Counted from the stretch's first letter, positions 9,739 to 63,124 are shown. The stretch: 64,000 nucleotides of DNA from an uncultured Mycoplasmatota bacterium (GCA_900543825.1 UQSR01000005.1:11122-75121), one strand, 5' to 3'. The notes: a model not told the origin generated them from the letters alone. Numbers and translations are program-made.

Positions 9739-9743
9739 AAATA

Positions 9744-11501: not shown

Positions 11502-11535
11502 CTTCAAAAAACCTCTCACAACAAAGTGTGAGAGG
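11502..11535 (-). terminator. Rho-independent terminator after the 440-aa membrane-protein gene
   Basis: 9-bp stem CCTCTCACA-ACAAAG-TGTGAGAGG followed on the minus strand by TTTTTTGAA. Two further hairpins follow (11458-11480 and 11488-11507). Confidence 0.6.
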
Positions 11536-11541
11536 AATTAT

Positions 11542-12864: not shown

Positions 12865-12891
12865 TTTCTCACCCCCTTTTTATATTATTTT

Positions 12892-18913: not shown

Positions 18914-19129
18914 CTATTCAAATACTTTATTTTCGTCTCCAGCGCAATATCCCTCTCCGATTTTTTTGCCTTCAACATATTCTTTACCAGAAATATTACA
19001 GCCCATTTTAGTAACGGCATCTTGAAGATAGCCTCCAAATGCCTTTACTGCTCCTATTGCTATTACAGTAATTAAGGATATGATAAGTACATACTCTACA
19101 AGGGTTTGTCCTTTTCTATTTAACTTCAT
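18914..19129 (-). CDS. Flp/Fap-type (type IVb-like) pilin
   Basis: 71 aa. Leader MKLNRKGQTLVEYVLIISLITVIAIGAV matches the Flp G/xxxxEY processing motif followed by a hydrophobic helix. Confidence 0.5.
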   Translation of the reverse strand: MKLNRKGQTLVEYVLIISLITVIAIGAVKAFGGYLQDAVTKMGCNISGKEYVEGKKIGEGYCAGDENKVFE

Positions 19130-19198
19130 ATTTCCACCTCACGTATTATTAAATATATCTAAGATAATTGTACTATATTTTTTTGAATATTGCAAGTA

Positions 19199-19591
19199 CT
19201 ATTGACAATTATAATCAAAGTCATATGTAAATTGTTTAGTTTGACAATTAAATGTTACAGATACTTCTTTGTTTGTTAAATCATCATTATTTATTGGATT
19301 TTTTATATCACCATCTATTTTTCCAGCCTCTATTAGTTTAGATATAGAAATTTTTATGGTATTTGATATAGGAATTTCTATGTTTTTATCACAAGTGAAA
19401 CCTAAATCATATTTATTTTCATTTACATAGAGCTTAGTGGCACTAATGATATTCTTTTTTAAACTTTCACATGATTTTTGTTTATTTATAGATATCATAT
19501 TGATTACATTAGGAACTAAAATCATGGATATTATTGCAATTATGGCTATTACCATTAATAACTCTATTAAAGTAAATCCTTTTTTATTCAT
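19199..19591 (-). CDS. Prepilin-type (ComGC/PilE-like) pseudopilin
   Basis: MNKKGFTLIELLMVIAIIAIISMIL is a class-III signal (G|FTLIE with Glu5); 130 aa with a Cys pair near the C-terminus; AGGAG RBS. Confidence 0.6.
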   Translation of the reverse strand: MNKKGFTLIELLMVIAIIAIISMILVPNVINMISINKQKSCESLKKNIISATKLYVNENKYDLGFTCDKNIEIPISNTIKISISKLIEAGKIDGDIKNPINNDDLTNKEVSVTFNCQTKQFTYDFDYNCQ

Positions 19592-19605
19592 AAATACTCC
19601 TATTC

Positions 19606-19782
19606 TTAACCATTGGAACTATTAGAAGTAAAATAGTCTTCTTCTAAGTCTTCAGTTATTTTATCTATATTATTTTTTTTAGAGGATAATATTGCTAAAT
19701 ATGTACTTGTAAGTACAACGAATAGTATTAGTAATCCATATAAAACGCTAGTTATAGCAAATCCTTTATTATTTAATTTCAT
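19606..19782 (-). CDS. Unannotated 62-aa prepilin-like small protein (atypical: no Glu at +5)
   Basis: Not in the ORF track (below its size cutoff). ATG with a GGAGG RBS 7 nt upstream. MKLNNKGFAITSVLYGLLILFVVL is pilin-like, and its stop lies 12 nt before the next pilin's RBS. Confidence 0.4.
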   Translation of the reverse strand: MKLNNKGFAITSVLYGLLILFVVLTSTYLAILSSKKNNIDKITEDLEEDYFTSNSSNG

Positions 19783-29103: not shown

Positions 29104-30397
29104 CTCCCCGAATAAAGTGCAAATTGTTTGCACCATCACTTCACAGTGATGAATTTCTGTTTCTTGGAAACTACACTTAGCTTCGTCCACAGACTTAAAT
29201 TCCGATAAGTGCTACCGTACTTTATTTTTACTTTAAAGAAATTTTGTTCGTTATTGACATTCATTATTGATACCTGGAATATACTTTCTTCATATATAAT
29301 TTTAGCCCTTCAAACATGATATTTATACTTGCATTTAAATCTCTATCTAATGTGTTTTTGCAACATTGGCATACATAGTCTCTCTCATTTAAGTTCTTGT
29401 ATTTTTTATCTATATTATCACAAACACTACAGGTTTGACTTGATGGATAGTAGGTATTTATTTTGAAAAAGTATTTACCTTTTTCTTTAGACTTGTATTC
29501 TAGTTGTTTTAGTATTTCTCTAAATGTTGCATCATTTATTTTTTTTGATAGATTTATGTTTTTGTCCATAATCATTTTTTTAATATTTAATGATTCGGTA
29601 ATTATTATATCATAATTATCGGTTATTTCTTTTGTTATTTTATGAATGTAGTATTTTCTGGCATTGGATAATTTGCTATAGAGTTTATTTAATCTTTTTA
29701 AATTTTTGTAATAGTTTTGACTTCCTTTATTCTTTTTGGATAATTTATAGTGTTCTCTTTTTATTTGTTCTTCGTATTTATTTATATATTTGTTATTATC
29801 ATACGATGTATTATCTGACATTGTTATTAGTTTCTTTATTCCTAAATCTATTCCTACTATTGTATTTGGTTTTCTTTTTGATGGTTCTGGCAATTCATAT
29901 AATATACTCACATAATATTTGCTATTTTTATCTTTCGATATTGTTACGTTTGTTATTTTGCCATTTATTTTGGTGATATTTCTATAGCCTCTTATTTTTA
30001 ATTCTTCTAATTCTGGTAATTTTATTGTTCTACTAATTAAATCTAATTCTATATTACAGTATTTATTGTAAATAGCTTTAATTGTATAACTATTTTTACC
30101 ATATTTGCTTCGATATTTTGGATTACTAATTCCACTGTTGAGATGTCTTTTATAATTATCTTGTAGATTGAATATTGTTTTCTTGATAAGCAATGGATTG
30201 GCTTCTAGTAAGAAAGGATATTCATATTTTAATTTATTTGTATAATCTTTAATACAAGAATAGGCGTTTATATATCCTTCGCTAATTATTTTTCTAAGAT
30301 AATAATTATATACAAATCTATTACATCCAAAAGTTTTATTTAGTTTTTGTTTTTGTGTGTCACTTGGATATATTCTAAATTTATATGCTTTATACAT
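29104..30397 (-). mobile_element. IS200/IS605-family tnpB-only element (IS1341-like); boundaries approximate
   Basis: Intact tnpB with a structured ~160-nt 3' region (hairpins GTGCAAA..TTTGCAC, CATCACT..AGTGATG, GTTTC..GAAAC), typical of an omega-RNA scaffold. No Y1 (HUH) tnpA is present. Confidence 0.4.
29264..30397 (-). CDS. tnpB: RNA-guided endonuclease TnpB (OrfB, IS200/IS605 family)
   Basis: MYKAYKFRIYPS...QKQKL..FGC.RFVYN N-terminus; split RuvC residues (IVGIDLG D, IIITESL E, DRDLNASINI D); C-terminal Zn finger CSVCDN...CQCCKN; 377 aa. Confidence 0.85.
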   Translation of the reverse strand: MYKAYKFRIYPSDTQKQKLNKTFGCNRFVYNYYLRKIISEGYINAYSCIKDYTNKLKYEYPFLLEANPLLIKKTIFNLQDNYKRHLNSGISNPKYRSKYGKNSYTIKAIYNKYCNIELDLISRTIKLPELEELKIRGYRNITKINGKITNVTISKDKNSKYYVSILYELPEPSKRKPNTIVGIDLGIKKLITMSDNTSYDNNKYINKYEEQIKREHYKLSKKNKGSQNYYKNLKRLNKLYSKLSNARKYYIHKITKEITDNYDIIITESLNIKKMIMDKNINLSKKINDATFREILKQLEYKSKEKGKYFFKINTYYPSSQTCSVCDNIDKKYKNLNERDYVCQCCKNTLDRDLNASINIMFEGLKLYMKKVYSRYQ

Positions 30398-36926: not shown

Positions 36927-38450
36927 TTACTGGTTGTTTTTTGGTATTATTATTCTTTTGATTATATAATAGATTATAGTTATAAATATGTAAAAAATTA
37001 TGACTAAAATGCTATTGATGATGTTTTTTGTATCTACTTTTATTATTAATGTAAATAATGTTAATATTAAACATAATATTATGTTTTCATAGATAATATT
37101 TAATATGCTATTAAAGTTATCTAATAAATTTATTTTTAGTTTTCTAGTTAAAAGTATTATTCCAATAATAATACTGATTATTAGTCCTAATATTGTACTG
37201 GCTATGCTTCCGAAATATGCTGTATATCCCATTCTATATGCTGAATTTATTAGTGGTACTTCAAAAATTATCTTAGTTATTAAGCTTATTAAAAGAAATA
37301 TTATAATATTTTTTTCTTTGTTACATATTATATTTATATTTACAATACTATCGTATATTGTATAAAAGAATATTAATGGTACTAATCCGAAAATAAAGTT
37401 ATAATCGTTATTAAATAATGTAATATTGATTGGTCCTGATATAATCATTAATATTATAGTTATCGTTAGGCTGGTATTGATTATTTTATTTAATATTTTA
37501 TGAAATAAGTCTTTATAGTTATTATCTTTGTTTATTATAGATGTTTTTAATTTATTTATATCTGTATTATATATTTTTTTGATTATTAAATGTATAATAT
37601 ATATAATTATTATTCCATAAAAGTATGTATTGGTAATATAATTTGATACATCATCATAACTATATTTATATCTATTTAGTAATATATAATATAATACTAT
37701 AATGGATATGTATATATATGATGCGTTTATTATATTATATATTATTATGCATCTATTATCTATTAATGATTTTTTTATTTGTATAATATAATTTATTTTT
37801 GTTTCTTCTCTCTTTTTTGTATATTTATTGTTTTTCTTTACTACTAATATATAAGATAATATTATTAGTATTATGCCTAATATTATTGGTACTAAATATA
37901 TTATTATTATTTTTAAATAATCTTCTAATAAAAAAACTTTATATAGTAAGAAGATATTGATTATATTAAATAATATACTACTTAATTTATATATATTTAA
38001 TAATATGTTTTTTTTATATCCAAATATATTTAAATAGTTATTTATTAGTTTTATAATAAGTGATATGGATAAGAATATTGTCATGGTTATATTAACTAGA
38101 TATAATTTTTCTATATTTATTAGTGTTGATATAATGTAAGATATTACTCCTAAAAGCATGGTTAAAATAATGATAAGTAATATACTACATTTAAATACTT
38201 TATTCATTGTATATAGATATTTTTTATCATAATAATCATTTAATAATTTTTTTATTTTATTTGAACTAAATATACTATAATATATTAAAAACAAGCTAAA
38301 ACTAAAGGTAAGTAAGAAAGTATTACTATTTTTAGTAAGATGATATAATACTATTATATATATAAATGTTAAGATATTTATTATTTTCTTCATATGTACT
38401 CCTAAGAAAATTATATAGGAAAATATTGTTTTTGTAAACTTTTTTTGCAA
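36927..38450 (-). CDS. Large polytopic membrane protein, unknown function
   Basis: 507 aa, at least 12 hydrophobic segments, extremely Ile/Asn/Tyr-rich. Confidence 0.5.
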   Translation of the reverse strand: MQKKFTKTIFSYIIFLGVHMKKIINILTFIYIIVLYHLTKNSNTFLLTFSFSLFLIYYSIFSSNKIKKLLNDYYDKKYLYTMNKVFKCSILLIIILTMLLGVISYIISTLINIEKLYLVNITMTIFLSISLIIKLINNYLNIFGYKKNILLNIYKLSSILFNIINIFLLYKVFLLEDYLKIIIIYLVPIILGIILIILSYILVVKKNNKYTKKREETKINYIIQIKKSLIDNRCIIIYNIINASYIYISIIVLYYILLNRYKYSYDDVSNYITNTYFYGIIIIYIIHLIIKKIYNTDINKLKTSIINKDNNYKDLFHKILNKIINTSLTITIILMIISGPINITLFNNDYNFIFGLVPLIFFYTIYDSIVNINIICNKEKNIIIFLLISLITKIIFEVPLINSAYRMGYTAYFGSIASTILGLIISIIIGIILLTRKLKINLLDNFNSILNIIYENIILCLILTLFTLIIKVDTKNIINSILVIIFYIFITIIYYIIKRIIIPKNNQ

Positions 38451-38499
38451 AAGTAGTTGATTTTTTAATAATATTGTGGTATCATTTATATCGACTGAT

Positions 38500-38576
38500 G
38501 TCTTGGTAGCTCAGCTGGATAGAGCAATCGCCTTCTAAGCGATCGGTCTGGAGTTCGAATCTCCACCAGGACACCA
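38500..38576 (+). tRNA. tRNA-Arg with anticodon UCU
   Basis: GTCTTGGTAGCTCAGCTGGATAGAGCAATCGCCTTCTAAGCGATCGGTCTGGAGTTCGAATCTCCACCAGGACACCA; anticodon loop CT-TCT-AA, T-loop TTCGAAT, encoded CCA. Confidence 0.85.
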
Positions 38577-38586
38577 CTTAGATATT

Positions 38587-38619
38587 AACTTCTTACTTAG
38601 TAAGAAGTTTTTTATTTTT
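38587..38619 (+). terminator. Rho-independent terminator of tRNA-Arg
   Basis: AACTTCTTAC-TTA-GTAAGAAGTT hairpin followed by TTTTTATTTTT. Confidence 0.7.
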
Positions 38620-38945
38620 CTCTTAATTCTCTTACGCTCAAGTTATAACTTTCTGTTATAGATATATAATAATTAATTTCATTAACATCATTAAGTGATA
38701 ATAATTCTGAGTAATGACTCCAAGATAATTGTTGCGACAATGTCGCAACTTTTTCAGACAATACATAAAATTGTCGCATTCTGGACAATGCAATGAAGGT
38801 ATAGCCTTTTCCTAGTTCACTGGTTAACCTTTTGGAATACTCTTTTATTAATCCATTCCCATACTTTGCCCTATTTTCACCACCTTTTGCTTATATACTT
38901 CATTATCTATTAGTTTATTTTTTATTTCATTATAATAATTCATAT
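38620..38945 (-). pseudogene. Decayed duplicate of the 5' third of the adjacent DUF1016/PD-(D/E)XK nuclease gene
   Basis: 38616-38690 and 38900-38945 are ~95% identical to 39466-39540 and 39815-39860; the middle is diverged. It retains a GGAGGA RBS and an ATG (MNYYNEIKNKLIDNEVYKQ...) but carries an internal deletion/frameshift and a premature stop. Confidence 0.5.
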
Positions 38946-38952
38946 CATCCTC

Positions 38953-39867
38953 CTAACTTATTACATAATCTCTAGTATATATTCTGTTATCGCTTGAATA
39001 TTCTATATAATAATGATTATCACGCCTAGATATAATAATACCTATTGTTTTATCTTGATTAATACTTTTAATATGTTTATCTATATAATTCATATATACT
39101 TCTATTTGTCCTATATGTTCTTTCTTTAGTTCACATACTTTTAATTCTATTACTATAAAACAATTATAAATATAATTAAATAATAATAAGTCTATATAAT
39201 TATAAGTATTACCTATTTTTATTTTGTATTCATTTTCTATAAAACTAAAGCCATCTCCAAGTTCTTTTAAAAACGATGGTATATCTTCGAGTATCAATCT
39301 TTGAAGCATCTTCTCAGAAATATTTTCTATATCATAATTATATTTATTCTTAATAACTATTGGATTCTTAATAAAATCACTTACGTTAACTTCTTCTTTA
39401 TTAATTAGTTTTAATTTAGCATTATCGTCTAATCTTTGATATTCTTTATTTTTAATTCTTTCTCTCAATTCTCTTACACTCAAATTATAACTTTCTATTA
39501 TAGATATATAATAATTAATTTCATTAATATCATTAAACTTTAGAATTTCTTTGTAATGGCTCCATGTTAATTGGTCCGACAGTGTAGGACTTTTTTCATA
39601 CAATATATAAAACATTCTCATATATTTAAGTGAAGTTATAGAATACTTTTTCCCCAAATCTTTTGTTAATCGCTCAGAGTATTCTTTAATTAAGCCATCA
39701 CCATATTTTGCCCTATTTTCACCACCTTGTGCTTCAATTAACAATCTACCAACTTCATAATAAGTACTAATCTCATTTCTATTCTTAGAATAATCTTTTA
39801 CTCTTTTATATACTTCATTATCTATTAATTTACTTTTAATCTCATTATAATAATTAATTTTATTCAC
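38953..39867 (-). CDS. DUF1016 (YhcG-like) protein with C-terminal PD-(D/E)XK nuclease fold
   Basis: N-terminal YYEVGRLLIEAQGGENRAKYGDGLIKEYSERL...MRMFY (DUF1016_N); C-terminal IDLLLF ... VIELK PD-(D/E)XK-like motifs. Confidence 0.6.
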   Translation of the reverse strand: MNKINYYNEIKSKLIDNEVYKRVKDYSKNRNEISTYYEVGRLLIEAQGGENRAKYGDGLIKEYSERLTKDLGKKYSITSLKYMRMFYILYEKSPTLSDQLTWSHYKEILKFNDINEINYYISIIESYNLSVRELRERIKNKEYQRLDDNAKLKLINKEEVNVSDFIKNPIVIKNKYNYDIENISEKMLQRLILEDIPSFLKELGDGFSFIENEYKIKIGNTYNYIDLLLFNYIYNCFIVIELKVCELKKEHIGQIEVYMNYIDKHIKSINQDKTIGIIISRRDNHYYIEYSSDNRIYTRDYVIS

Positions 39868-43993: not shown

Positions 43994-46516
43994 CTATTTA
44001 TTCAAATTAGTATATCCCTTAAGATGTCTCAAAATACCCAAACAATCATCCTTATCAATCTTACCATCTTTATTATTATCAGCAGCTATAGCATAATAAG
44101 ATTTCAAATCACCATAACCCTTAAGATGTCTCAAAATACCCAAGCAATCATCCTTATCAATCTTACCATCACCATTAACATCACCATAGATAACAATACC
44201 AAAACTCTCTTCTTCCTTACCATTACCAATAACTACAACGTCTCCAGTAACAAAAGTACCACTAGTCTTATTATTACCTTTATTATCCTTTATATTAACA
44301 CTAGCATAATTACTAACTTTCTTAATATTATCAATTAAACTACTAATAGAAGTACCCTCATCAATACCAAAAATATAATCATTATTATATTTAATACCAG
44401 AACTATTCAAAATAGTATCAATTGATGGAATATCATCAGGATTATCTATCTCATCACGTTTAACATTAATAACATATTCTCTACTATTACCACTCTCAGA
44501 AGTAACAATAACACTTATCTTCTTCTCATTACTATCAATACTAATATCACCAGTACCACTAATAGAAGATGAACTAGCAATCTTACTAGCACTAATATTA
44601 ACACTACCAGTACCAGCAGGTACACTAACATCATAAGTATAAGTATCATAACTAAATCCACTAACAGTAGTCCCATTAACCTTCAAATCATTTAAATAAT
44701 TATTAGGATTACCAATTCTAGGAGCAGTAACAGCATAATTAGGCATATCCTTATATACAGGAATAGTAAATTCTAAATCCTTATCAAAATAATCCGAAAT
44801 AATATTAACATAAGACTTATAAACCTTATCAGTCTCTTGAGCAATAACCGCTAAATTCTGCATATACTGATGTGTATAATTACCATTATTCGTAGATACA
44901 TCAAACTTCTCATAATATAAAGTATCCTGATTAACACCACAATATTCATCATAAATAAACTTACTACCACCATATATACCACGATATGGAGTATTCCATC
45001 CATTTTCAACAGCATATCTCATACCATTTAAAATCTTATTAGTACCATAAACCTTAATATTAAAGAAATTATAATAATTAGAATAATTAGTACCATCTAA
45101 AGTAAAACTACCACCACTTCTAGGATCAGAAGTACCAATACCAGATATTTCCTGTTTAATTCTCGCTGCTATATGAAAAGAACTAATACCAATATCTTTA
45201 GTAGCATTAAAAACATCAGAATAAGCATTACCACTATAACCAGAATAAACACTATTCCAATAACTATTATTACCCATTATCTTTTTTACACCATCTTCAG
45301 TATGATTACTATTATAATTAAGAAGTTCATAGGCAATAATATATTTAATATTCAAATAATTTCTCGGATCCAAATAATAAGCTACAGCCTCTGAAGAAGC
45401 ATCATACCATCCATTCTCAGTAGCATAAGAAGTAAACTTATTGCTCAAAATATCATAACTATTTATACCCATCGAATAATAATTCTCATTAAATGCACTA
45501 CCCTGTAATAAATTACGACCATAAGCATTCTCTCCACTTACAACCCCATCAAAAGTAAGAGGTATCGTTTCACTTATAAATTTCCAATTAGGATGCCTTG
45601 CATGAAGTTCTGCTAAATAAGGCAAATAGCTATCAGGAAAACCACCTTTTCTTAAAAAATTATAATAATCATCCAAACTATTATTCTTATAATAATTAAT
45701 AGCCATATCAGAAAGCTTAGTAGTATTAACATAATAACCACATACATAACCACTATTACCCTTACTATCTGTTATATTATAATAATAAGGACAAATACCA
45801 CTAGATTCAGAAGAAGAATTAATAGTTATAACTTCACCACAACTAACCTTTTTACCAGTAGTACTACCGCCAGGAGTCTTTCTAAGAGATAAGTCACCAG
45901 TATCCTCAAAACAACTAATAGTTCCATCTCCACTAGGTTTAGAATTATAATTATCTTTTTTATAAATATTATCTCCACTACCCCTACCAATATCTTTAAC
46001 TGGTGTAGAACTATTAACATCACCTATATATTTACCACATGCATATCCAGTATTACCATTATGTCTAACTTTATACCAATTATCACACTTAGTATTACTA
46101 GCAACATTCTTCTCTAATATTTCCATCTCTTCATTACAATCTAATTTATCAACCTTATTAGTTTTATTAATATCACTCCATATATTTAAAGGATCAGTAT
46201 TCTCAATGCATAAAGCCTTACCCTTATAAGTAGTATTAGAATCTTTAAGTTTAATATAATCACCACATGCATAACCAGTAGTAATATCATATCTAACCTT
46301 ATACCAAGTCCTGCAATTACTAGTAGATCCAGCATTAGTATCAAGAACCTCTACATCACTACCACATGGAATACCCTTTCCTATTAAAGAACCACCAGCA
46401 CTATTTCTTATATTAATAGGTTCATTATCATCAGGACAATAAGCAGTTCCATTAGCAGCATATCCTACATTTATAAATAAAACAAATAATACCAAAGTAA
46501 TAATTATCTTCTTCAT
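43994..46516 (-). CDS. Secreted multidomain cell-wall hydrolase candidate: 3x SH3b-like repeats + GH73-like glucosaminidase region + cadherin-like domain + C-terminal dockerin
   Basis: Three WYKV...GY(A/V)CG repeats and an ENGWNTPYRG / YTHQYMQNLAVIAQ glucosaminidase-like segment. Also a cadherin-like NNYLNDLKVNGTT... segment and a duplicated Ca-binding dockerin pair (GDVNGDGKIDKDDCLGILRHLKGY twice). Confidence 0.5.
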   Translation of the reverse strand: MKKIIITLVLFVLFINVGYAANGTAYCPDDNEPINIRNSAGGSLIGKGIPCGSDVEVLDTNAGSTSNCRTWYKVRYDITTGYACGDYIKLKDSNTTYKGKALCIENTDPLNIWSDINKTNKVDKLDCNEEMEILEKNVASNTKCDNWYKVRHNGNTGYACGKYIGDVNSSTPVKDIGRGSGDNIYKKDNYNSKPSGDGTISCFEDTGDLSLRKTPGGSTTGKKVSCGEVITINSSSESSGICPYYYNITDSKGNSGYVCGYYVNTTKLSDMAINYYKNNSLDDYYNFLRKGGFPDSYLPYLAELHARHPNWKFISETIPLTFDGVVSGENAYGRNLLQGSAFNENYYSMGINSYDILSNKFTSYATENGWYDASSEAVAYYLDPRNYLNIKYIIAYELLNYNSNHTEDGVKKIMGNNSYWNSVYSGYSGNAYSDVFNATKDIGISSFHIAARIKQEISGIGTSDPRSGGSFTLDGTNYSNYYNFFNIKVYGTNKILNGMRYAVENGWNTPYRGIYGGSKFIYDEYCGVNQDTLYYEKFDVSTNNGNYTHQYMQNLAVIAQETDKVYKSYVNIISDYFDKDLEFTIPVYKDMPNYAVTAPRIGNPNNYLNDLKVNGTTVSGFSYDTYTYDVSVPAGTGSVNISASKIASSSSISGTGDISIDSNEKKISVIVTSESGNSREYVINVKRDEIDNPDDIPSIDTILNSSGIKYNNDYIFGIDEGTSISSLIDNIKKVSNYASVNIKDNKGNNKTSGTFVTGDVVVIGNGKEEESFGIVIYGDVNGDGKIDKDDCLGILRHLKGYGDLKSYYAIAADNNKDGKIDKDDCLGILRHLKGYTNLNK

Positions 46517-48828: not shown

Positions 48829-48870
48829 AAAATTCAAAAAAGTAGAAGAATATTAATACTCTTCTACTTT
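48829..48870 (-). terminator. Rho-independent terminator of the 558-aa pilin / 153-aa partner unit
   Basis: 11-bp stem AAAGTAGAAGA-(10-nt loop)-TCTTCTACTTT overlapping the 153-aa gene stop; the minus strand continues with TTGAATTTTT. Confidence 0.55.
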
Positions 48871-49314
48871 AAAACTATATGCATTACTAATATCCCTATT
48901 AATCTGTGAAAAGAAATCCCTCTTCTTACCAAATTCCAACTCATAAATCTCAGTCTTAAAAGAATATATTTCCTTATTATCTTTATCAAATAATGTAATC
49001 TTTAATCTAAGATCTTTATTAGTATTAGAATTTAAATTCATAACATATCCATCAAATTCACTCCTATTAGAAGAACATATAACATACATATCAGTAAAAA
49101 CATAATTATCATATACATACTTTTCCATATTCATATTATCAAGTAAATTAATTTCTTTTGTAGTACCAATACTTTCAACATATTCAGTATGACAATCAGT
49201 ACAATCATTATCTTTTTTATTAATAAGTAATATCATACCAATTATCAAAACACTAATTATAATTAATAAAATTATTAATACCCTTTTCTTATTCACTAAT
49301 ATCACCTCTAACAA
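48853..49314 (-). CDS. Small bitopic membrane protein translationally coupled to the 558-aa modular pilin
   Basis: N-terminal TM (VLIILLIIISVLIIGMILLI), ~110-aa Cys-containing ectodomain; start overlaps the pilin stop by 7 nt. Confidence 0.45.
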   Translation of the reverse strand: MLEVILVNKKRVLIILLIIISVLIIGMILLINKKDNDCTDCHTEYVESIGTTKEINLLDNMNMEKYVYDNYVFTDMYVICSSNRSEFDGYVMNLNSNTNKDLRLKITLFDKDNKEIYSFKTEIYELEFGKKRDFFSQINRDISNAYSFKVEEY

Positions 49315-50984
49315 GAATTTTTAGTAGTTTCATCAAAACTATTATTATCACCACTAATATTTTGTAATGAACTTCTAGTAGTAATAGCACAATCATCATA
49401 TATCTTCCATCCATTAGGAATTCCATACGGATAGTCAGGACAAACAAATTTCTCACCAATCTTAGCAACATGACTATTATAATAATCTTTCGACATACCA
49501 CAAACACTACAATAAACAGCAAATCCATAATTATGATAATTGCCACAAGTAAACTGTGTTGATTGCCCTATAGCAAATTTTCTAATTCCCCTTGCTTTCC
49601 ATACATGCGTATGTTCTTGAGTTATACAATTTCTTAACGTATCCCTATCAACAGTTCCATATTCAGAGCTACCATCAAATTCCGTATAATTACAAGTAGT
49701 TTCACTACATGTAGTAATATAATATTTACCATTACTATTGCATCTATAATCATTAATAGAATCTATAAAGCAAGAACTATTATTTAAAGTTGTTCTATTT
49801 ATCTTTCCAACAGTATATTCAAAATAAGATTTATCGTTTTCCTTATATGCCACCGCAGTATATTCACACATATCATCAGGATCACAATAAGTAATAAAAT
49901 AAGAATAAATACCTTGACATCTCCAATCATTAATAGTTGCATCAATATTCTTCCAATTAACTTTAAGAGTTACAGTACAATCACCATTTGAAGCATCACA
50001 GAACTCACTAGCTTTATATGCCTTATCCTGATCAAAAGTTTTACCAACAGTACTACATCCACTACTAGAATCACATATCCAAGTCTCACTATCATATGCA
50101 AAATAACCATCTTTTGTAATATATAAATATTCAGGATTATTATAATTAGCAAGACCAGCACTATCTAAAGAGCCTCCATAATTTATAGTATGGAATACCT
50201 CACTATCATTCCAAGAACAATTAATAACATTATTACTAGTACTACAAGTACCATTAGTAGTACTACCCCTAACACTACCACCATTAGCATCAAGCTTAAT
50301 ATATACCTTATTAATCCTCCACTGAGCATATAAAGTCAAATCAGCATTACTATTATAAGAAGCACCAGCCTTATAAGTAGTTCCACTACCATCCTTTTTA
50401 GTATTCCAATTAACAAAAGTATAACCAGTTCTTGTAGGTTTACTACTAGATAAACTAATACTTTTATTTTCTATTTTACTCTGATCACCAGGAGCATTAC
50501 TACCACCATTAGCATTATAGCTAATAGTATATAAATTATTTTCTTCTGTTTCCTTATTAACACAAGCCTTATAATCATTACTATTAACATCAGCATTATC
50601 ACCCAATATAACAGGTTCACTCTTAACTAAAGAAACCTTATCCTTTTTAATAGAAATATAATTACTCTTATTAATATTATCCGGAAGTTTAGCATTCTTC
50701 TTAATAATACCCTTATTAATAAGTTCCTCAATAGTTATACAATAATATTTATAATTACCACTACCAGGATCAATCCATAAACTATCATCAGCTTCATCAG
50801 CATATAAACTAGCACTCTTCTTAATACTAGTTTCGCTAATTAAAGAACCCTTTTCTTTAGACTTATTAACCAAATTAACAATACCATAAGTACCAATACC
50901 AAGTATTATCGCTACAATAGCAATAACACCAAGTAACTCTATTAAAGTAAAACCCTTATTATTAATCCTTTTCATATATAACAC
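49308..50984 (-). CDS. Modular type IV pilin-like protein (prepilin N-terminal cleavage/methylation domain + Flg_new repeat + Cys-rich module), 558 aa
   Basis: Class-III leader MKRINNKGFTLIELLGVIAIVAIILGIGTYGIV (G|FTLIE), pilin-like head to ~aa 120. One Listeria-Bacteroides/Flg_new repeat (YTISYNANGG...GYTFVNWNTKKDGSGTTY...LTLYAQW), then a ~235-aa Cys-rich module shared with the 1124-aa paralogue. Confidence 0.7.
   Translation of the reverse strand: MLYMKRINNKGFTLIELLGVIAIVAIILGIGTYGIVNLVNKSKEKGSLISETSIKKSASLYADEADDSLWIDPGSGNYKYYCITIEELINKGIIKKNAKLPDNINKSNYISIKKDKVSLVKSEPVILGDNADVNSNDYKACVNKETEENNLYTISYNANGGSNAPGDQSKIENKSISLSSSKPTRTGYTFVNWNTKKDGSGTTYKAGASYNSNADLTLYAQWRINKVYIKLDANGGSVRGSTTNGTCSTSNNVINCSWNDSEVFHTINYGGSLDSAGLANYNNPEYLYITKDGYFAYDSETWICDSSSGCSTVGKTFDQDKAYKASEFCDASNGDCTVTLKVNWKNIDATINDWRCQGIYSYFITYCDPDDMCEYTAVAYKENDKSYFEYTVGKINRTTLNNSSCFIDSINDYRCNSNGKYYITTCSETTCNYTEFDGSSEYGTVDRDTLRNCITQEHTHVWKARGIRKFAIGQSTQFTCGNYHNYGFAVYCSVCGMSKDYYNSHVAKIGEKFVCPDYPYGIPNGWKIYDDCAITTRSSLQNISGDNNSFDETTKNSC
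49600..50320. repeat. ~0.7-kb direct repeat copy A (about 94% identical to 51930-52640) encoding the Cys-rich module
   Basis: The protein segments (R/K)xNKVYIKLDANGGSVRGSTT...TLKVNWK..I..TINDWRC...DRDTL are near-identical. Embedded antisense ORFs 49970..50161 and 52269..52460 differ at only ~6 of 63 codons. Boundaries approximate. Confidence 0.6.
50680..50984. repeat. ~0.3-kb direct repeat (near-identical to 54560-54870) encoding the shared pilin leader/head
   Basis: The first ~100 aa of the 558- and 1124-aa proteins are almost identical, including long identical nucleotide runs (e.g. acccttattaataagttcctcaatagttatacaataatatttataattaccactaccagg). Confidence 0.6.
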
Positions 50985-51070
50985 CTATCCTAAGACTAAT
51001 TATAATATATTTTAAAAAAAAAGAAAAGACCATTAACAAAATAAATGTTAATAGTCCTATATAATAAGTA

Positions 51071-51493
51071 TCATCCTAATGGTTTTTCAAAATAATATAC
51101 TGTACTGCTAAATTCCCCCGAATCCTCTTTTAAAAGCATCATATCATTTTCATAAGAAACCTTAAAAACCCCAGAAAAATAATCAGAATTATTAATAGTT
51201 AATATATCATCTTTTTTTGTATAATTATTGGTGTAACATTTATCATAACAAACATCTACTTTATCATCATAAAATGTAAGGGTAAAAGGAGCCATATCAT
51301 AAGGAATATCTATCTTATTACCATTATTATCATAAGTTTCATATTTTGTATAACTCCAAGTTTCATAGTTTTTATCATCTAATTTAGTTCCTTGTTTTTT
51401 AACAAAAACAAAAATCAATAAGCCAATCATTACCAATAAAATAATAAAAATACATAAATATAACACTTTAATTTTTTTATTCATATCAACCAT
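51071..51493 (-). CDS. Small bitopic membrane protein translationally coupled to the 1124-aa modular pilin
   Basis: N-terminal TM (VLYLCIFIILLVMIGLLIFVFV), ~105-aa ectodomain with 4 Cys; its start is 3 nt after the pilin stop. Confidence 0.45.
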   Translation of the reverse strand: MVDMNKKIKVLYLCIFIILLVMIGLLIFVFVKKQGTKLDDKNYETWSYTKYETYDNNGNKIDIPYDMAPFTLTFYDDKVDVCYDKCYTNNYTKKDDILTINNSDYFSGVFKVSYENDMMLLKEDSGEFSSTVYYFEKPLG

Positions 51494-51495
51494 TT

Positions 51496-54400
51496 CTAAT
51501 AAAATCCTCCAGTCTCAACAGAACCACTAGGGCAAGAACTACGACAGAAGTTACCTATGCAATCTCCTTTACCATTATAGCCTGCATAAGAACCACCTAA
51601 GGAACTAATCTTACTACGACACTGAGCATCAGAGCCAGCAGAAGTAATACATTTAACAATTTTTTTACAGCCACCACTTGTTCCGCCACCACTAGAGCCA
51701 ACGCAACTACTAGGTTTACTTGAAGACAAAGCACTTCCAACCGAGTAACATCCATCATTTGTTACATAATACCATCCGTTAGTAGCATTTACATTAACAG
51801 TTAAAGCAGCACCGCAACTATAGGCCACAGCAATACCATATGAAGTTCCAGCACCATAACGACAGTTTACTCCATTTGATGAAGTAACATACATTGTCTT
51901 AGTATCCGGAACACACTCTTTCAACGTATCTCTATCAACAATATAAAGATTATTAGGGTTCATAGTATTACCATTAAGTTCAGTATATATACATGTAGTT
52001 ACACTACATGTAGTAATTTTATATTTACCATTACTATTACATCTATAATCATCAATATTATCAACAAAACATGAACTAAGATTTAAATTATTCCTATTTA
52101 TCTTACCATAAACACGTTCCGAATAAGATGCACCATTTTCTTTATATGCTCTTGCTGTATATTCACACATATCATCAGAATCACAATAAGTAATAAAGTA
52201 AGAATATTTATCATGACATCTCCAATCATTAATAGTAGTATCAATTTTCTTCCAATTAACTTTAAGAGTTACAGTACAATCTCCACCTGAAGCATCACAG
52301 AACTCACTAGCCTTATATGCCTTATCCTGATCAAAAGTTTTACCAACAGTACTACATCCACTACTAGAATCACATATCCAAGCTTCACTAGCATATGCAA
52401 AATAACCATCTTTTGTAATATATAAATAATCAGGATTATTATAATTAGCAAGACCAGCACTATCTAAAGAATCACCATAATCAATAGTATGAAATAATTC
52501 TTTAGGACTATTCCAACTACAACCGATAAGATTATTATTAGTCCTACAACTACCATAAGTAGTACTACCCCTAACACTACCACCATTAGCATCAAGTTTA
52601 ATATATACTTTATTCTTTTTCCATCTAGCATATAATACAAGTTTATTTTCCGCTATACCGTATTGACCATCAGCATAGTTCCAAGTACCACTCCAACCTG
52701 TCCATCCATAGCCATCATCTGTTCCATTACTTTTTGTTGTCCAACCAGCAAATGTATAACCATCACGTGTAAAGCCATTATTCTTAATAGTAACATTAGT
52801 ACCAAATTCAGCATTATTACTTTCCATAGTACCAGTTCCACCATTTGCATTATAATTAATTCTATAAACTACACCCTTCCAACCAGCATATATCGTTTTA
52901 TTACCTTCCGTATTATATATATCTGAAGATATATACTGAGATATTCTTCTACCTTCCTTTAAACCATATTCAAAGTAATGTTTATATAAACGATTAGCAT
53001 CATAACCAAAAGCATTCTTTAAATCACTATAAGTGTCAGCATAATAATTAAGAGGACTATTTTTATAATTATTATCAAACCAACCTACAAAAGCATAACC
53101 ACGTTTACTAGGTGTACATAAAGTACCATATTCATCACCATAATTCATTGATTTACTAGTGCACCCACTACCACCATTATTATCATAAAGCAAAGTATAA
53201 TTCTTAGTTTTCCAATTAACACCAAGTACTACAGTACAACTCTTATCCTTTGCATCACAAAAATCATCAGAACTATATGCCTCATATTGGCTATATACTT
53301 TTCCACTAGTAGTACATCCGCTTAAACAAATCCATTCCTTATTCTTAGTAACAATAGCATCATTTCTAGTAATATATAAATAATCTTTATTATTATAATT
53401 AGCAAGCCCATTACTATTCATCTTTTCACCATAATTAATAGTATGGAAAATATTTTTGCCATTTCTACTAATAATACCAGAAGAATCAGTAGTATATGTC
53501 CCACCTTTTGAAGTTTCTTTAGTTACACTACCACCATTAGCATTAAGTTTAATATTAACTCTACTTTTAATAATAGGATAATAAGTATTACTACCATCAA
53601 TATCTTTAGAAGTATTTGCCTTCCATATACTACTACTAGCACTACTATCAGTATTCCAGCCTACTATTGTATAACCATCTTTACTAATACTAGGAGATTT
53701 AATACTACATTTCTTATCAATATCATTCAAACAAATATTAGTAATATCATTAGTACCATTATTAATCTTATCAGCATTACCCTTCTTAAATACTGTTCGG
53801 TACAAATTAAATTTCTTATCATTATCTTTATAATTACCAGTTTTATCCATTATTCTAGCAGTAATATCACCATTCTTAATTTCATTATCCTTATAAGTAA
53901 TCTTAACTTCATTTTCATTAACCTTATACCACTTATCTTTAGTAATATTACTAGTACTACCACTACAAGTAAATTTATTATCACTACCAAGCGTACATTC
54001 ACTAACATTCTTATCACTAGTACCATCGACATTAGACTTAAAATAATGCTTACCTTGATCACTCCTAATATTATCATCCTTATAAGTAATCGTAATAGTA
54101 TCATCCTTATAACTAAACGTAGGATCCACAAAATCAGCAAGAGGATAAGTTTTAGTTTCAGAGCAAACTTTAGATCCCTTCTCTGTAGACATACATACTC
54201 TAACATAATAATCATTATTATTTTTATCGTTTGTAAGATTAACTATATTACATACATTTTCATCTTTATCAATAGAAATTACATTTTCCCCATCTGCTAT
54301 AGAAGATGAACCATTTTTATACTGACACCATTTTTCCTTAATTGAACTTTCTGTTTCGGCATTTTTAAACTCTATAACAAAACCATCAGTATATGATTTA

Positions 54401-54870
54401 CCATCACCAAGTTCTGGACTTTTATTTATATCTTCATTATATTTATTACCAGTACACACTTGATAATCAGTACTATTAATATCAGCATTAGAACCCAATA
54501 TAATCGGATCATTTTTAACAAAAGTAACCTTATTTTTCTTAATCGAAACATAATTATATTTATCTATACCCTTAGGAAGTTTAGCATTCTTCTTAATAAT
54601 ACCCTTATTAATAAGTTCCTCAATAGTTATACAATAATATTTATAATTACCACTACCAGGATCAATCCATAAACTATCACCAGCTTCATCAGCATATAAA
54701 CTAGCACTCTCCTTAATACTAGTTTCACTAATTAAAGAACCCTTTTCTTTAGACTTATTAACTAAATTAACAATACCATAAGTACCAACACCAAGTATTA
54801 TCGCTGTAATAGCAATAATAGCCAGTAACTCTATCAAAGTAAAACCCTTATTATTGATTTTATTTTTCAT
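51496..54870 (-). CDS. Giant modular type IV pilin-like protein (prepilin N-terminal domain + several Flg_new repeats + two copies of the Cys-rich module + Gly/Ser/Cys-rich tail), 1124 aa
   Basis: Leader MKNKINNKGFTLIELLAIIAITAIILGVGTYGIV and head near-identical to the 558-aa paralogue; at least three Flg_new-type repeats (e.g. YRINYNANGGTGTM...GYTFAGWTTKSNGTDDGY...LVLYARW). Two copies of the (R/K)..IKL(D/N)ANGGSV...FHTI(N/D)YG...GLANYNN.DYLYIT module; C-terminal SSCVGSSGGGTSGGCKK... tail. Confidence 0.7.
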   Translation of the reverse strand: MKNKINNKGFTLIELLAIIAITAIILGVGTYGIVNLVNKSKEKGSLISETSIKESASLYADEAGDSLWIDPGSGNYKYYCITIEELINKGIIKKNAKLPKGIDKYNYVSIKKNKVTFVKNDPIILGSNADINSTDYQVCTGNKYNEDINKSPELGDGKSYTDGFVIEFKNAETESSIKEKWCQYKNGSSSIADGENVISIDKDENVCNIVNLTNDKNNNDYYVRVCMSTEKGSKVCSETKTYPLADFVDPTFSYKDDTITITYKDDNIRSDQGKHYFKSNVDGTSDKNVSECTLGSDNKFTCSGSTSNITKDKWYKVNENEVKITYKDNEIKNGDITARIMDKTGNYKDNDKKFNLYRTVFKKGNADKINNGTNDITNICLNDIDKKCSIKSPSISKDGYTIVGWNTDSSASSSIWKANTSKDIDGSNTYYPIIKSRVNIKLNANGGSVTKETSKGGTYTTDSSGIISRNGKNIFHTINYGEKMNSNGLANYNNKDYLYITRNDAIVTKNKEWICLSGCTTSGKVYSQYEAYSSDDFCDAKDKSCTVVLGVNWKTKNYTLLYDNNGGSGCTSKSMNYGDEYGTLCTPSKRGYAFVGWFDNNYKNSPLNYYADTYSDLKNAFGYDANRLYKHYFEYGLKEGRRISQYISSDIYNTEGNKTIYAGWKGVVYRINYNANGGTGTMESNNAEFGTNVTIKNNGFTRDGYTFAGWTTKSNGTDDGYGWTGWSGTWNYADGQYGIAENKLVLYARWKKNKVYIKLDANGGSVRGSTTYGSCRTNNNLIGCSWNSPKELFHTIDYGDSLDSAGLANYNNPDYLYITKDGYFAYASEAWICDSSSGCSTVGKTFDQDKAYKASEFCDASGGDCTVTLKVNWKKIDTTINDWRCHDKYSYFITYCDSDDMCEYTARAYKENGASYSERVYGKINRNNLNLSSCFVDNIDDYRCNSNGKYKITTCSVTTCIYTELNGNTMNPNNLYIVDRDTLKECVPDTKTMYVTSSNGVNCRYGAGTSYGIAVAYSCGAALTVNVNATNGWYYVTNDGCYSVGSALSSSKPSSCVGSSGGGTSGGCKKIVKCITSAGSDAQCRSKISSLGGSYAGYNGKGDCIGNFCRSSCPSGSVETGGFY
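51930..52640. repeat. ~0.7-kb direct repeat copy B (paralogue of 49600-50320)
   Basis: See copy A; boundaries approximate. Confidence 0.6.
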
Positions 54871-60618: not shown

Positions 60619-61473
60619 TTATAATCTTTCCAAAACTCCATTTTCCAAATCGTCTATATTATATATTGTTTCAAGTACATTAAAAGTTTCTTCAAGATTA
60701 TGTTTAGCATTATTCCAACCAGTTCCATCAGTAAACCAAATAAATGTTACACCTGTAACTTTTTTAGCTTCTTCCGCTAGCATTTTATAGCTTCTAGCAG
60801 TTTCATTTAGTTTAGAACCACCACTTGTATAAAAATTTGTTTCTATAACATATACCATATTTTCTTTCTTTATAACAAAATCAAATCTTTTAGCGGATAC
60901 ATTATTTCCCGACATAGCACTTAAATCCAAATTCCACTTTCTTTCTATATCCTTCAAATACATTTCCTTAAAATATGTATCATTCTTTTTATACCCAGCT
61001 TTTACAATATATTCTTCTACTAAATTTTCCATTAAATGACCACCACGATTTTTTCTACCATTTGAATCCAAACCAACCTCTATTCCTAGAACATAATCAT
61101 ACAAATTATTTATAATATGATTTTGAAGCAAATCAAAAAGGCCACACTCTCTCATAAATCTAATATAGTCATCAACCGAGTACACTAACTTCTTAAAATT
61201 GAATAAATACTCATTTATCTCATCTTTTATAAAAATTTCACTAGAACGAACCGCAAGTAACAAAGGAATACATTCCAATGTTTCAGGATACCTTATTATT
61301 ATATTTTGAAAATCATCTTCAATTTTTTCACTACCAATCAAAGAATTTAAAATATTTAATTCCAATTTTACCTTATCAACATTTTTATATATCTTATCAA
61401 AATCAACATAATAAGCATAATTTGATATACTTGATTTAAAACTGCTAAACCACTCATTAAAATCTCTATTCAT
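60619..61473 (-). CDS. dpnB: Type II restriction endonuclease, DpnII/MboI family (GATC)
   Basis: 284 aa; conserved blocks LNILNSLIGSE, GLFDLLQNH, GRKNRGGHLMEN, KRFDFVIK and SKLNETARSYKM match DpnII endonuclease (DpnB). Confidence 0.8.
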   Translation of the reverse strand: MNRDFNEWFSSFKSSISNYAYYVDFDKIYKNVDKVKLELNILNSLIGSEKIEDDFQNIIIRYPETLECIPLLLAVRSSEIFIKDEINEYLFNFKKLVYSVDDYIRFMRECGLFDLLQNHIINNLYDYVLGIEVGLDSNGRKNRGGHLMENLVEEYIVKAGYKKNDTYFKEMYLKDIERKWNLDLSAMSGNNVSAKRFDFVIKKENMVYVIETNFYTSGGSKLNETARSYKMLAEEAKKVTGVTFIWFTDGTGWNNAKHNLEETFNVLETIYNIDDLENGVLERL

Positions 61474-62249
61474 TATTTATCATTCTCCAATCTTCTAATA
61501 GTCAAGTCCAAATACCCTTTTTCTCTTTCTATACCAATATATTTTCTATTTAATCTGCTTGCAACTATCCCAGTTGTACCACTACCATTAAAAGGATCTA
61601 AAATCAAATCACCTTCATCTGTTGATGCCATAATGACTTTTTCAAGTAATTCTATCGGTTTCTGCGTAGGATGTTTCCCACATTTCTTCTCACTAGGCTT
61701 AGTAAGTGATGTTTCCCATACGTCTTTCATTTGCTTATTATTATTTAATTTTTTCATAGCATCATAATTAAACTTATATTTAATATTCTTTATATCTTTT
61801 TTTGCCCACAAAATAGTCTCAGTAGAATGCACAAATGCACGACAGCTTATATTAGGAGGTGGATTTAATTTTCTCCAAGTAATATTATTTATTATCTTAA
61901 ACCCGTTCTCTTCAAGTGCCATACCTATTGAATAAATATTATGCATAGTACCACTTATCCATATAGTACCATTATCCTTTAACACTCTTTTACATAATTT
62001 AATCCATTCTTTATTAAATTTATGTTTCTCTTTAAAATCAATAGCCTTATCCCATTCTCCTTTGTTAACACTTACCATCTTACCTCCACTGCAGGTTATA
62101 CCATTATCAGATAGAAAATAAGGAGGATCTGCAAAAATCATATCAATACTCTCTGGTTTAATACTTTTAAGCACTTCCAAAGAATCACCATATATAAGTT
62201 TAAAATCACATTTATCATAATAATAAGCAAACTTTTTCATAAGTATCAC
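61473..62249 (-). CDS. dpnA: DpnA-like N6-adenine DNA methyltransferase (ssDNA-active second MTase of DpnII cassettes)
   Basis: 258 aa; MIFADPPYFLSDNG (DPPY), WISGTMHNIYSVGMALE, KHPTQKPIELLEKVI and DPFNGSGTTG (FxGxG) align along their length with DpnA. Confidence 0.8.
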   Translation of the reverse strand: MILMKKFAYYYDKCDFKLIYGDSLEVLKSIKPESIDMIFADPPYFLSDNGITCSGGKMVSVNKGEWDKAIDFKEKHKFNKEWIKLCKRVLKDNGTIWISGTMHNIYSIGMALEENGFKIINNITWRKLNPPPNISCRAFVHSTETILWAKKDIKNIKYKFNYDAMKKLNNNKQMKDVWETSLTKPSEKKCGKHPTQKPIELLEKVIMASTDEGDLILDPFNGSGTTGIVASRLNRKYIGIEREKGYLDLTIRRLENDK

Positions 62250-62263
62250 ATCCTTGTAACATG

Positions 62264-63124
62264 TTATATTAAGTTATCAAAACCTCTCTTGTTCTCAAAA
62301 TTTGTAATTATAACTTCTTCTACTTTTCCTCTTTTTTTACCATTAGCATTAATATTCCTCTTAGCCTCTATAACATGAATATTAAAATCACTATAAAGTT
62401 CATTAATAAGCTTAGTATTATGATTAGAAAGCATTACAAAACATCCCCTATCAGATAACTCTCTAAATACTTTTGCTAGCCTTCTCTGTTCACCTTTTCC
62501 AAAACCATCTTCTGTATAACTATTAAAAGTAGAAGTATCAGAATCATATGGTGGATCAAAATATATAAAATCACCTCTTTTAGCAGTACTTACAGCATCT
62601 TCAAAATCAATAGATAAAATCTTAATATCATTATAATTTAAAAAACCACAAATTATACCCAAGTTCTGCCCCTCATAAGTATTAACTTTAGCTTTTTTAC
62701 CAAAAGGAACATTAAATTCCCCTTTACTATTAACCCTATATAATCCATTAAAACAAGCCTTATTTAAATAAATAGTTCTAGCGGCTCTTTTATAATCAGC
62801 AATTTTATTAAACTTTTTCTTATCCCTATCTATATTTCTAATTTCATAATAATAATCTTCAGAATGATACATCTCATGACGATTTAATTCTCTACACATA
62901 GCTTCAAACTTTTTCTCATCTTTAATACAATTATATACATTCATAAGTTCATAATTAGAATCATTAATTACTGCCCTTTTAGGAGATAACTCAAATAATA
63001 ACGCACCACCACCCACAAAAGGTTCATAATAAGTATCAAACTCATCAGGAACATATTCCATAAGTTTATTCATTATTTGTCTCTTACCACCAGCCCACTT
63101 TACAAATGGTCTACCTTTAATCAT
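62264..63124 (-). CDS. dpnM: Dam-family GATC N6-adenine DNA methyltransferase (DpnM-like)
   Basis: 286 aa; FVKWAGGKRQ, EPFVGGGALLFEL (FxGxG), NGLYRVNSKGEFNVPFG and DFIYFDPPY match DpnM/Dam. Confidence 0.85.
   Translation of the reverse strand: MIKGRPFVKWAGGKRQIMNKLMEYVPDEFDTYYEPFVGGGALLFELSPKRAVINDSNYELMNVYNCIKDEKKFEAMCRELNRHEMYHSEDYYYEIRNIDRDKKKFNKIADYKRAARTIYLNKACFNGLYRVNSKGEFNVPFGKKAKVNTYEGQNLGIICGFLNYNDIKILSIDFEDAVSTAKRGDFIYFDPPYDSDTSTFNSYTEDGFGKGEQRRLAKVFRELSDRGCFVMLSNHNTKLINELYSDFNIHVIEAKRNINANGKKRGKVEEVIITNFENKRGFDNLI

Follow-up and report, generated by a model that had tools for sequence, protein, structure and literature searches.

What might be the function of a locus in which two very large proteins begin like type IV pilins, continue like modular surface proteins and are each followed by a small membrane protein? 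The question is raised by a stretch of DNA of 64,000 nt from an uncultured Mycoplasmatota bacterium (GCA_900543825.1, UQSR01000005.1:11122-75121; GC content ~27%), in the following referred to as the window. Its minus strand carries the four open reading frames (ORFs) pil1124, sm140, pil558 and sm153, which an original prediction made from the nucleotide sequence had described as two paralogous giant pilin-like genes, each coupled to a small membrane ORF. All four ORFs were found at the positions predicted for them, and the paralogy of the two large genes, the tight ribosome-binding-site junctions and the terminators bear the description out. In this study, we propose that the locus encodes modular pilin-type surface adhesins that would be processed by a prepilin peptidase and displayed on a type IV filament or pseudopilus, with the small protein serving as a membrane accessory. 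We give this reading a probability of roughly 55%. It builds on the established features of the locus, namely the sequence features themselves, the paralogy, the pairing of large and small genes, the variation among strains and the fold of the Flg_new repeats.

Two gene pairs encoding pilin-headed modular proteins

The first gene pair consists of pil1124 (51496..54870, minus strand), which encodes a type IV pilin-like protein of 1124 amino acids (aa) and 124 kDa, and sm140 (51071..51493, minus), which encodes a small bitopic membrane protein of 140 aa. The ATG of sm140 lies 2 nt past the pil1124 stop, behind GGAGGA; the close succession had been predicted correctly, with a gap of 3 nt instead of the 2 nt measured. 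A terminator-like hairpin with a 13-bp stem and a following T run (51026..51058, minus) closes this unit. The second pair consists of pil558 (49308..50975, minus) and sm153 (48853..49296, minus) and is closed by a similar hairpin with a 14-bp stem and a T run (48839..48870, minus). Seven such terminator-like sites were found in the region, as compared to 1.4 expected. The reading frame of pil558 is open from GTG 50984 (558 aa), but the start is almost certainly ATG 50975, which is preceded by a AGGATAGG Shine-Dalgarno sequence at the usual spacing, is the start in public gene calls and gives a protein of 555 aa and 61.7 kDa. Likewise, sm153 is open from TTG 49314 (153 aa), but GTG 49296, located 11 nt past the pil558 stop with an AGGTGA ribosome-binding site in front, is the more plausible start and yields a bitopic membrane protein of 147 aa with a CxxCH motif after its transmembrane segment. 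The 7-nt overlap of sm153 with pil558 that had been described exists only with the TTG start and is judged unlikely. Promoter-like matches were no commoner than in shuffled sequence; a TATAAT box is present upstream of both pilin genes. The simplest reading of these signals is two bicistronic units, each made up of a pilin gene and a small ORF, and the small gene is probably translationally coupled to its pilin gene. Because the GC content of the window is only ~27%, frames of 558 and 1124 codons would by no means stay open by chance. Pseudogenes or chance ORFs were considered as well and rejected, since intact ORFs of 555-1649 aa at 27% GC and dN/dS ratios of 0.3-0.6 speak against them.

Both large proteins begin with a class III prepilin leader. 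The sequences read MKNKINNKG/FTLIELL in pil1124 and MKRINNKG/FTLIELL in pil558 (slash before position +1), with Gly at -1, Phe at +1 and Glu at +5 directly visible. The Pfam hidden Markov model (HMM) N_methyl (PF07963) scores 28.9 and 25.1 bits in the two large proteins at a gathering cut-off of 21.2, the type of cut-off used for Pfam throughout, and pil558 in addition passes TIGR02532 (24.7 bits as compared to 16.3). With the N_methyl model run and the motif read directly, the leader with Glu at +5 that had been assigned to both proteins is upheld. Canonical G/FTLIE N-termini are rare; a six-frame motif scan of the 64 kb retrieved three, those of pil1124, pil558 and a 130-aa ComGC-like ORF at 19199..19591.

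The leader is followed by a conserved head, which had been put at ~100 aa and measures ~140 aa in the family alignment. In pil1124 the head comprises aa 1-147 (54430..54870, minus), with a class III signal peptide, the alpha1 helix, a globular part and a conserved Cys pair; in pil558 it comprises aa 1-145 (50541..50975, minus). Identity between the two is 80-87% by BLAST and 87% for the head as delimited in pil1124. Across the head family N, F, T, L, I, A, Y, W, C, L, G and C are invariant. The Cys pair, C79/C138 in the numbering of the 555-aa protein, is retained in all nine head sequences down to 30% identity and is a putative disulfide. Conservation covers the whole head of ~140 aa beyond the hydrophobic segment alone, at ~27-40% identity in distant relatives. 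Values of dN/dS were 0.29-0.56 for the heads and 0.42-0.63 for the bodies, which indicates that selection on these genes is purifying but relaxed.

An AlphaFold2 (AF2) model of pil558, run on a 21-row alignment of family fragments, reached a mean predicted local distance difference test (pLDDT) value of 71.8, with domains confident to residue 451. The head was modelled as a long N-terminal helix followed by an alpha/beta unit: the alpha1 helix spans residues 11-41, a second helix residues 48-61, and strands follow (pLDDT 73-88). In a head-only model the globular part reached pLDDT 79-94. Structure comparison with solved pilins gave a weak match, and sequence comparison with them was confined to the N-terminal 27 residues. 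From its topology, a pilin fold of the head is plausible.

Membership in a ComG pilin family (ComGC, ComGD or ComGF) was rejected, scores being far below the equivalog cut-offs. For pil558 the NCBIfam competence-pilin models gave 16.4 as compared to 75 for ComGC and 17.2 as compared to 70 for ComGD, with the N-terminal motif alone aligning; pil1124 matched no Com model in NCBIfam. Shorter pilin-like proteins do occur in the window, as had been noted before. A prepilin-like mini-cluster of three short ORFs lies directly upstream of spoIIGA-sigE (18914-19782, minus) and encodes a 58-aa protein (MKLNNKGFAIT..., no Glu5), the 130-aa ComGC-like protein mentioned above (N_methyl 33 bits; ComGC below cut-off) and a 71-aa Flp-type protein (G/QTLVEY). 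No ATPase, platform or peptidase gene is found near this mini-cluster.

Behind the head both proteins continue with Flg_new repeats. Flg_new (PF09479) scores 63 and 71 bits in the two large proteins at a cut-off of 27, both proteins pass TIGR02543, and the Flg_new fold (InlB B-repeat, PDB 2y5p/7pv9) is confirmed in the predicted structure, in line with the repeats that had been recognised from the sequence. A Foldseek search with the whole multi-domain pil558 model gave the InlB match and otherwise noise. Outside the head, paralogy is found between residues 151-502 of pil558 and 668-1035 of pil1124, at 60% identity. The Cys-rich module of ~235 aa formerly described in this part does not hold as a single unit; fragment-wise BLAST and HMM comparison split it into module A (~125 aa, six Cys), present once in pil558 and twice in pil1124, and module B (~105 aa, two WRC..C..C hairpin repeats), present once in each.

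In pil558 a Flg_new unit (aa 146-220, 50316..50540; AF2 domain 148-221) is thus succeeded by module A (aa 221-345, 49941..50315; six Cys, AF2 domain 223-345, pLDDT 64-93), module B (aa 346-450, 49626..49940; eight Cys, all-beta, AF2 domain 346-445) and a His/Cys C-terminal region (aa 451-555, 49311..49625; AF2 pLDDT <50) with invariant H, CG..H, YC..CG, CP and terminal C. The longer protein first has a unique region with Cys pairs (aa 148-384, 53719..54429), which belongs to no Pfam family and gives a weak FN3-like hint. There follow a Flg_new-like unit with the first copy of module A (aa 385-560, 53191..53718), 48% identical to the second copy and to pil558 module A and recognised by the module A HMM; Flg_new repeats (aa ~558-747, 52630..53190) with three Pfam Flg_new stretches and Flg_new_2; the second copy of module A (aa 748-880, 52231..52629), 80-85% identical to that of pil558 and up to 97% at the DNA level; and module B (aa 881-1035, 51766..52230), with its two WRC..C..C beta-hairpin repeats. 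All these segments are encoded on the minus strand. The C-termini of the two proteins are unlike: whereas pil558 has its His/Cys region, the end of pil1124 consists of an SH3-like unit (SH3_3, E 0.06, below cut-off) and a Cys/Gly-rich tail (aa 1036-1124, 51499..51765, minus).

Modules A and B, the His/Cys region and the ectodomains of both small proteins match no Pfam family even at E <=10, and neither NCBIfam nor PHROGs gave anything useful for the two modules, this region or the small proteins. Compared with PDB, the His/Cys profile retrieved twelve matches, all of them small zinc-binding domains and none significant (E 0.09-2.4), including an HVO_2753-like zinc finger, a PHD finger, the ClpX ZBD, an A20-type finger, a rubredoxin mimic and ribosomal protein L37. 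The alignments fall on the CG..H, YC..CG and CP knuckles, and with low confidence we regard the region as a zinc-knuckle or ribbon-like module. The C-terminal halves of module A and canonical Flg_new align weakly in hhalign (probability 6%); that module A is an expanded Flg_new derivative would be a guess.

Relatives, strain variation and the small partners

Close relatives of the locus are numerous. More than 120 clusters at 89-100% identity came up in a word-indexed search, which implies one abundant species, and one of the window's housekeeping proteins has index entries in 1,719 blocks of the collection; in assemblies from the human gut the species is met with very commonly. In an exhaustive search of 1.84 billion representatives 39,574 hits were obtained, nearly all of them generic multi-repeat Flg_new giants. 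Among the best 149 of these, which were inspected, six have a prepilin N-terminus. Three carry near-identical heads (P0122, 1649 aa; P0123, 767 aa; P0132, 1121 aa) and three are more distant members of the same head family, with 30-40% identity in the head (P0191, 1211 aa; P0257, 1053 aa; P0263, 1336 aa). Within the same 149, module A is found only in these six pilin-headed proteins and three apparent fragments, and the His/Cys motif is limited to this group as well, being internal and not C-terminal in P0257. A homology search with the His/Cys C-terminus of P0263 as query gave no candidates.

Five architectures of the locus were seen. The window and GCA_965643355.1 share the two-pair form, in which priA is followed by a pilin of 1111/1124 aa, a small protein of 143/140 aa, a pilin of 556/558 aa and a small protein of 147 aa. 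The sister strain L001 has a single pair, and its pilin gene (P0035, L001 10001-11677) is chimeric, with a pil1124-type head in the 5' ~200 nt and pil558-type sequence in the remainder; one pair therefore appears to have been deleted when the tandem heads recombined. On two further contigs the pilin allele measures 1649 or 767 aa and is again accompanied by a small ORF. The pil1124 allele of the window has no exact counterpart on record. At the DNA level the two paralogues of the window form a mosaic, with identity rising from 50-60% to as much as 97% across module A, a pattern suggestive of gene conversion between them. Copy number and module number thus vary among strains, by all appearances through recombination, and the earlier idea of a variable fibre subunit fits this pattern.

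Each allele seen at this locus (556, 558, 767, 1111/1124 and 1649 aa) has a small ORF of 140-150 aa behind it. The small ORFs are of two types. The sm153 type, with CxxCH just past the transmembrane segment, is found behind all alleles with a His/Cys C-terminus (pil558, P0122 and P0123), and the sm140 type goes with pil1124. The two types show no BLAST similarity to each other, and nothing in sequence ties the sm153 type to the sm140 type. A profile of both types retrieved 25 clusters among 5.8 billion proteins, none of them named or with a Pfam domain; these ORFs are fast-evolving and taxonomically very narrow. For the sm140 type, homology was compared with the transmembrane segment removed. 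A chain of similarities leads from sm140 to P0290 (59%), from P0290 to a small ORF of L019 (E 4e-3), and from the latter to P0294 (37% over 98 aa, E 6e-11) and to an ORF of L005 (E 6e-4). All linked ORFs directly adjoin a giant pilin-headed Flg_new gene, downstream of it in the window and in L005 and upstream in L019 and in GCA_016648615.1. The sm140 type thus appears to be a conserved companion of this pilin subfamily in four lineages.

The covariation of C-terminal cassette type and small-ORF type downstream brings to mind a polymorphic effector, in which head and stalk form a scaffold that delivers C-terminal cassettes or toxins to neighbouring cells and the small membrane protein protects the producer. 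Such a function, which we think improbable, would agree with the polymorphism of cassettes and copy number among strains and with the rapid evolution and narrow distribution of the small ORFs. Its closest parallel is found on a 27-kb contig of GCA_016648615.1, where (genes at 8001-14237) a 1872-aa protein combines N_methyl, Flg_new and PT-HINT/Hint and resembles a polymorphic toxin on a pilin scaffold; the sm140 type has a 201-aa homologue encoded in front of it, and a separate 187-aa N_methyl protein is encoded 4 kb upstream. In this relative, then, the scaffold would have been put to use in toxin delivery at least once. The combination IPR012902-PF07591 (PT-HINT) is also listed in the 2021 catalogue of modular pilins (PMC8179133). 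The two window proteins appear to share with PT-HINT toxins a scaffold, variable C-terminal cassettes and a small adjacent gene. Unlike these toxins, however, neither has PT-HINT or a recognised toxin domain in Pfam, and the internal position of the His/Cys motif in P0257 argues against an effector. Since sm140-type partners adjoin giants with differing C-termini and their position varies, upstream in two cases, this type fits an accessory factor better than an immunity protein. No small partner is present beside the more distant relatives P0257 and P0263, which counts against the effector function and against the adhesin explanation alike. Were the effector function nevertheless correct, the abundant gut Bacilli species would possess a contact system that depends on a type IV filament and is used to compete or to recognise kin, to which we attach equally little likelihood.

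Proposed filament display and its alternatives

Are such heads restricted to this species? A genome collection was scanned with the pattern NNKGFTL[VI]E. The matches listed, which do not include the window's own species, are relatives from uncultured gut metagenome-assembled genomes (MAGs) labelled Bacilli, Tenericutes or Mycoplasma sp. CAG. Among them most pilin-like ORFs stand alone or in twos, and a T2SSE ATPase is absent within 10 kb. L076, a related Bacilli MAG, encodes a T2SSE ATPase (415 bits) next to two short ORFs of this kind. Several giants among these matches carry Flg_new, thrombospondin type 1 (TSP1) repeats, BspA-type leucine-rich repeats (LRRs) or unassigned modules, for example a tandem pilin-headed pair of 703 and 808 aa in Mycoplasma sp. 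CAG:877 (HF992496.1; L083 9992-14646), a 1005-aa protein with TSP1 repeats (L023 797-3814) and a 706-aa protein with BspA-type LRRs (L040 2001-4121). In these lineages, pilin heads seem to carry surface modules quite generally.

The orphan state of most of these genes, far from any ATPase, would suit a head that is a signal anchor only. In that case the class III signal peptide would export and anchor the protein, alpha1 would tether it to the membrane, with or without prior cleavage, and the Flg_new stalk would span the wall with no polymerisation. The cargoes are diverse and large (Flg_new, TSP1, BspA-LRR), as in ordinary surface proteins, and a mere anchor would be consistent with the head matching solved pilins weakly in structure. 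We nevertheless regard this as doubtful: simple anchoring would not require a globular part of ~110 aa that is conserved, carries an invariant, putatively disulfide-forming Cys pair and evolves under purifying selection, and other anchoring routes are encoded in the same gene row, with a sortase and a PPETG substrate.

The neighbourhood of the locus suggests yet another function. Pfam scans of the neighbouring genes confirmed that the unit lies in a run of surface-protein genes between priA, which adjoins pil1124, and comEA-comEC, with a DpnII-type cassette further upstream of priA. Downstream there follow, in this order, a PPETG/cadherin-like gene, a gene for a 225-aa membrane protein, an SH3_3/cadherin-like/dockerin gene, a second cadherin-like gene, comEA and comEC. 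The giant pilins might, as part of a Com pilus, bind extracellular DNA for ComEA/ComEC. The genes lie ~5.4 kb upstream of comEA-comEC on the same strand, and the relative in L004 sits between holA and lepA, which are neighbours of the comE operon in Bacillus subtilis. This role had been suggested in the original prediction and finds no support here; we consider it highly improbable. Five surface-protein genes and two terminators intervene before comEA, and the comEA/comEC synteny is not kept in relatives, which are flanked by uvrC/arcA, holA/lepA or Hpt/tkt; in L002 and L005 the comE linkage is not conserved. The modules are mostly acidic (isoelectric point of pil558, 5.5), and no DNA-binding domain was detected in them with Pfam. 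The ComGC, ComGD and ComGF scores given above argue against a Com pilus, and a search for upstream motifs shared with comEA or the ComGC-like gene gave AT-rich chance matches only.

According to the adhesin explanation, which we favour, the locus would represent two tandem, recombining copies of a two-gene unit. The large protein is laid out as a short basic leader ending in Gly, an alpha1 helix with Glu5, a head of ~140 aa, a Flg_new stalk, the lineage-specific modules A and B and an alternative C-terminal cassette, and the second gene product as a small membrane protein in N-in/C-out orientation. A prepilin peptidase encoded elsewhere in the genome would cut after the Gly, the head would enter a type IV filament or a short pseudopilus as a low-abundance minor or tip subunit, and its insertion would drive the modules across the wall. 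On the outer side, these modules, presumably rich in disulfides, may act as adhesins for host or microbial ligands. The small partner could be a subfamily-specific membrane accessory in folding, assembly or docking, and changes in copy number, module number and C-terminal cassette among strains could diversify binding or antigenicity. Cleavage, filament incorporation, adhesion and the role of the partner are steps that we infer. The view that these are pilins with grafted modules and a dedicated small partner, put forward before, stands as far as the motif, Flg_new and the conserved pairing are concerned.

Further observations speak against filament display. As had been noted, the 64-kb window contains no prepilin peptidase, secretion ATPase or platform gene (PilD-, PilB- or PilC-type) detectable with Pfam; nor is any of this machinery encoded within 10 kb outward of the window start (L091, L092), within the ~1 kb past the high-coordinate end as represented by the sister strain L001, or beside any relative examined. 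For pilus subunits of a walled Gram-positive bacterium, 62 and 124 kDa are moreover very high masses.

How does the locus relate to known systems? Modular pilins have been defined from Streptococcus sanguinis PilB, and more than 1,200 such proteins in 264 architectures have been catalogued (PMC8179133). Dataset S1 of that study lists IPR012902 followed by IPR013378 once, twice (9 proteins), three times or five times, and in mixed forms (PMC8179133). Both window proteins contain the IPR012902 motif and a non-type IV pilus domain (Flg_new) above cut-off and are modular pilins by this definition; like the catalogued proteins, they have N_methyl followed by 1-5 Flg_new units. The architecture is therefore already catalogued, though uncharacterised, and the locus is not categorically new and forms no new category. 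The catalogue holds architecture counts only, with no family description, partner gene, modules A and B or His/Cys region. Neither this head family, joined as it is to modules A and B and the His/Cys region, nor its small membrane partner or the tandem recombining arrangement is described in the literature searched. The former statement that the arrangement had not been described accordingly goes too far for the pilin part and, within that literature, stands for the modules, the partner and the tandem layout.

That modular pilins can act as adhesins is established for S. sanguinis PilB (pilin and vWA); PilC of S. sanguinis (pilin and lectin) is a modular pilin as well (PMC8179133). Like these, the window proteins fuse an N-terminal pilin module with a class III signal peptide to bulky modules in a monoderm host and would be minor or tip adhesins. 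Unlike bimodular PilB, they are larger and hold several modules (Flg_new and three units without a Pfam family); unlike both PilB and PilC, their genes are orphans outside any pil operon and have a small membrane partner each. Enterotoxigenic Escherichia coli CofB and Thermus ComZ likewise consist of a pilin domain bearing extra beta-rich domains thought to sit at the filament tip (PMC8179133). They are, however, encoded within pilus operons with known partners (CofJ for CofB; DNA for ComZ), and no sequence relationship of CofB or ComZ to the window proteins was detected. InlB of Listeria monocytogenes is a Sec-exported, GW-anchored invasin, whereas the B-repeat forms the stalk of a pilin-headed protein here.

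If display on a type IV filament is true, modular pilins would gain multi-module subunits of 124-180 kDa, three domain types outside Pfam, namely module A, module B and a probable extracellular zinc-knuckle module, and a small membrane partner of their own, hitherto undescribed for this class. Lineages of uncultured gut Bacilli make wide use of pilin heads to carry surface modules, among them Flg_new, TSP1, BspA-LRR and PT-HINT. Hypervariability among strains is as expected of a colonisation or recognition determinant. The interest of the locus rests on the abundant host species, its hypervariability and the undescribed modules with their conserved partner.

Neighbouring genes and other features of the window

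The neighbouring surface-protein genes include an ORF for an 840-aa protein (43994-46516, minus) with SH3_3, cadherin-like and type I dockerin domains, which implies a cohesin partner somewhere; the GH73 domain formerly assigned to it was not detected by Pfam. Upstream, the DpnII-type restriction-modification cassette (60619-63124, minus) comprises MethyltransfD12, N6_N4_Mtase and the DpnII endonuclease and is conserved in the sister strain. A NUDIX protein at the high-coordinate end of the window is without record, and beyond the other end only housekeeping genes are found.

A second, unrelated surface-fibre system of the window lies at 12892-15115 (minus), where a sortase gene overlaps the gene of a 534-aa SpaA/thioester-domain (TED) protein, a sortase-dependent adhesin or pilus subunit. 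A 533-aa protein (9744-11345, minus) has three DUF285 ('Mycoplasma protein') repeats and LRR signals; together with a 4101-aa Flg_new/DUF285 giant in L002 it represents a typical surface repertoire of low-GC gut Bacilli.

An IS605-family TnpB (OrfB_IS605 and Cas12f1-like TNB) is encoded between gltX and leuS (29264-30397, minus), with no TnpA noticed alongside. Finally, a switch in composition occurs at 37000-39500, where GC skew changes from ~+0.1 to -0.45 and AT skew from -0.2 to +0.2 within ~1.5 kb. The switch adjoins a stretch of 15-16% GC (ORF 36927..38450, 507 aa, with multiple transmembrane segments and no Pfam family), and gene orientation (minus) is unchanged across it. A replication-terminus-like switch could account for it, or else an inversion or insertion breakpoint.

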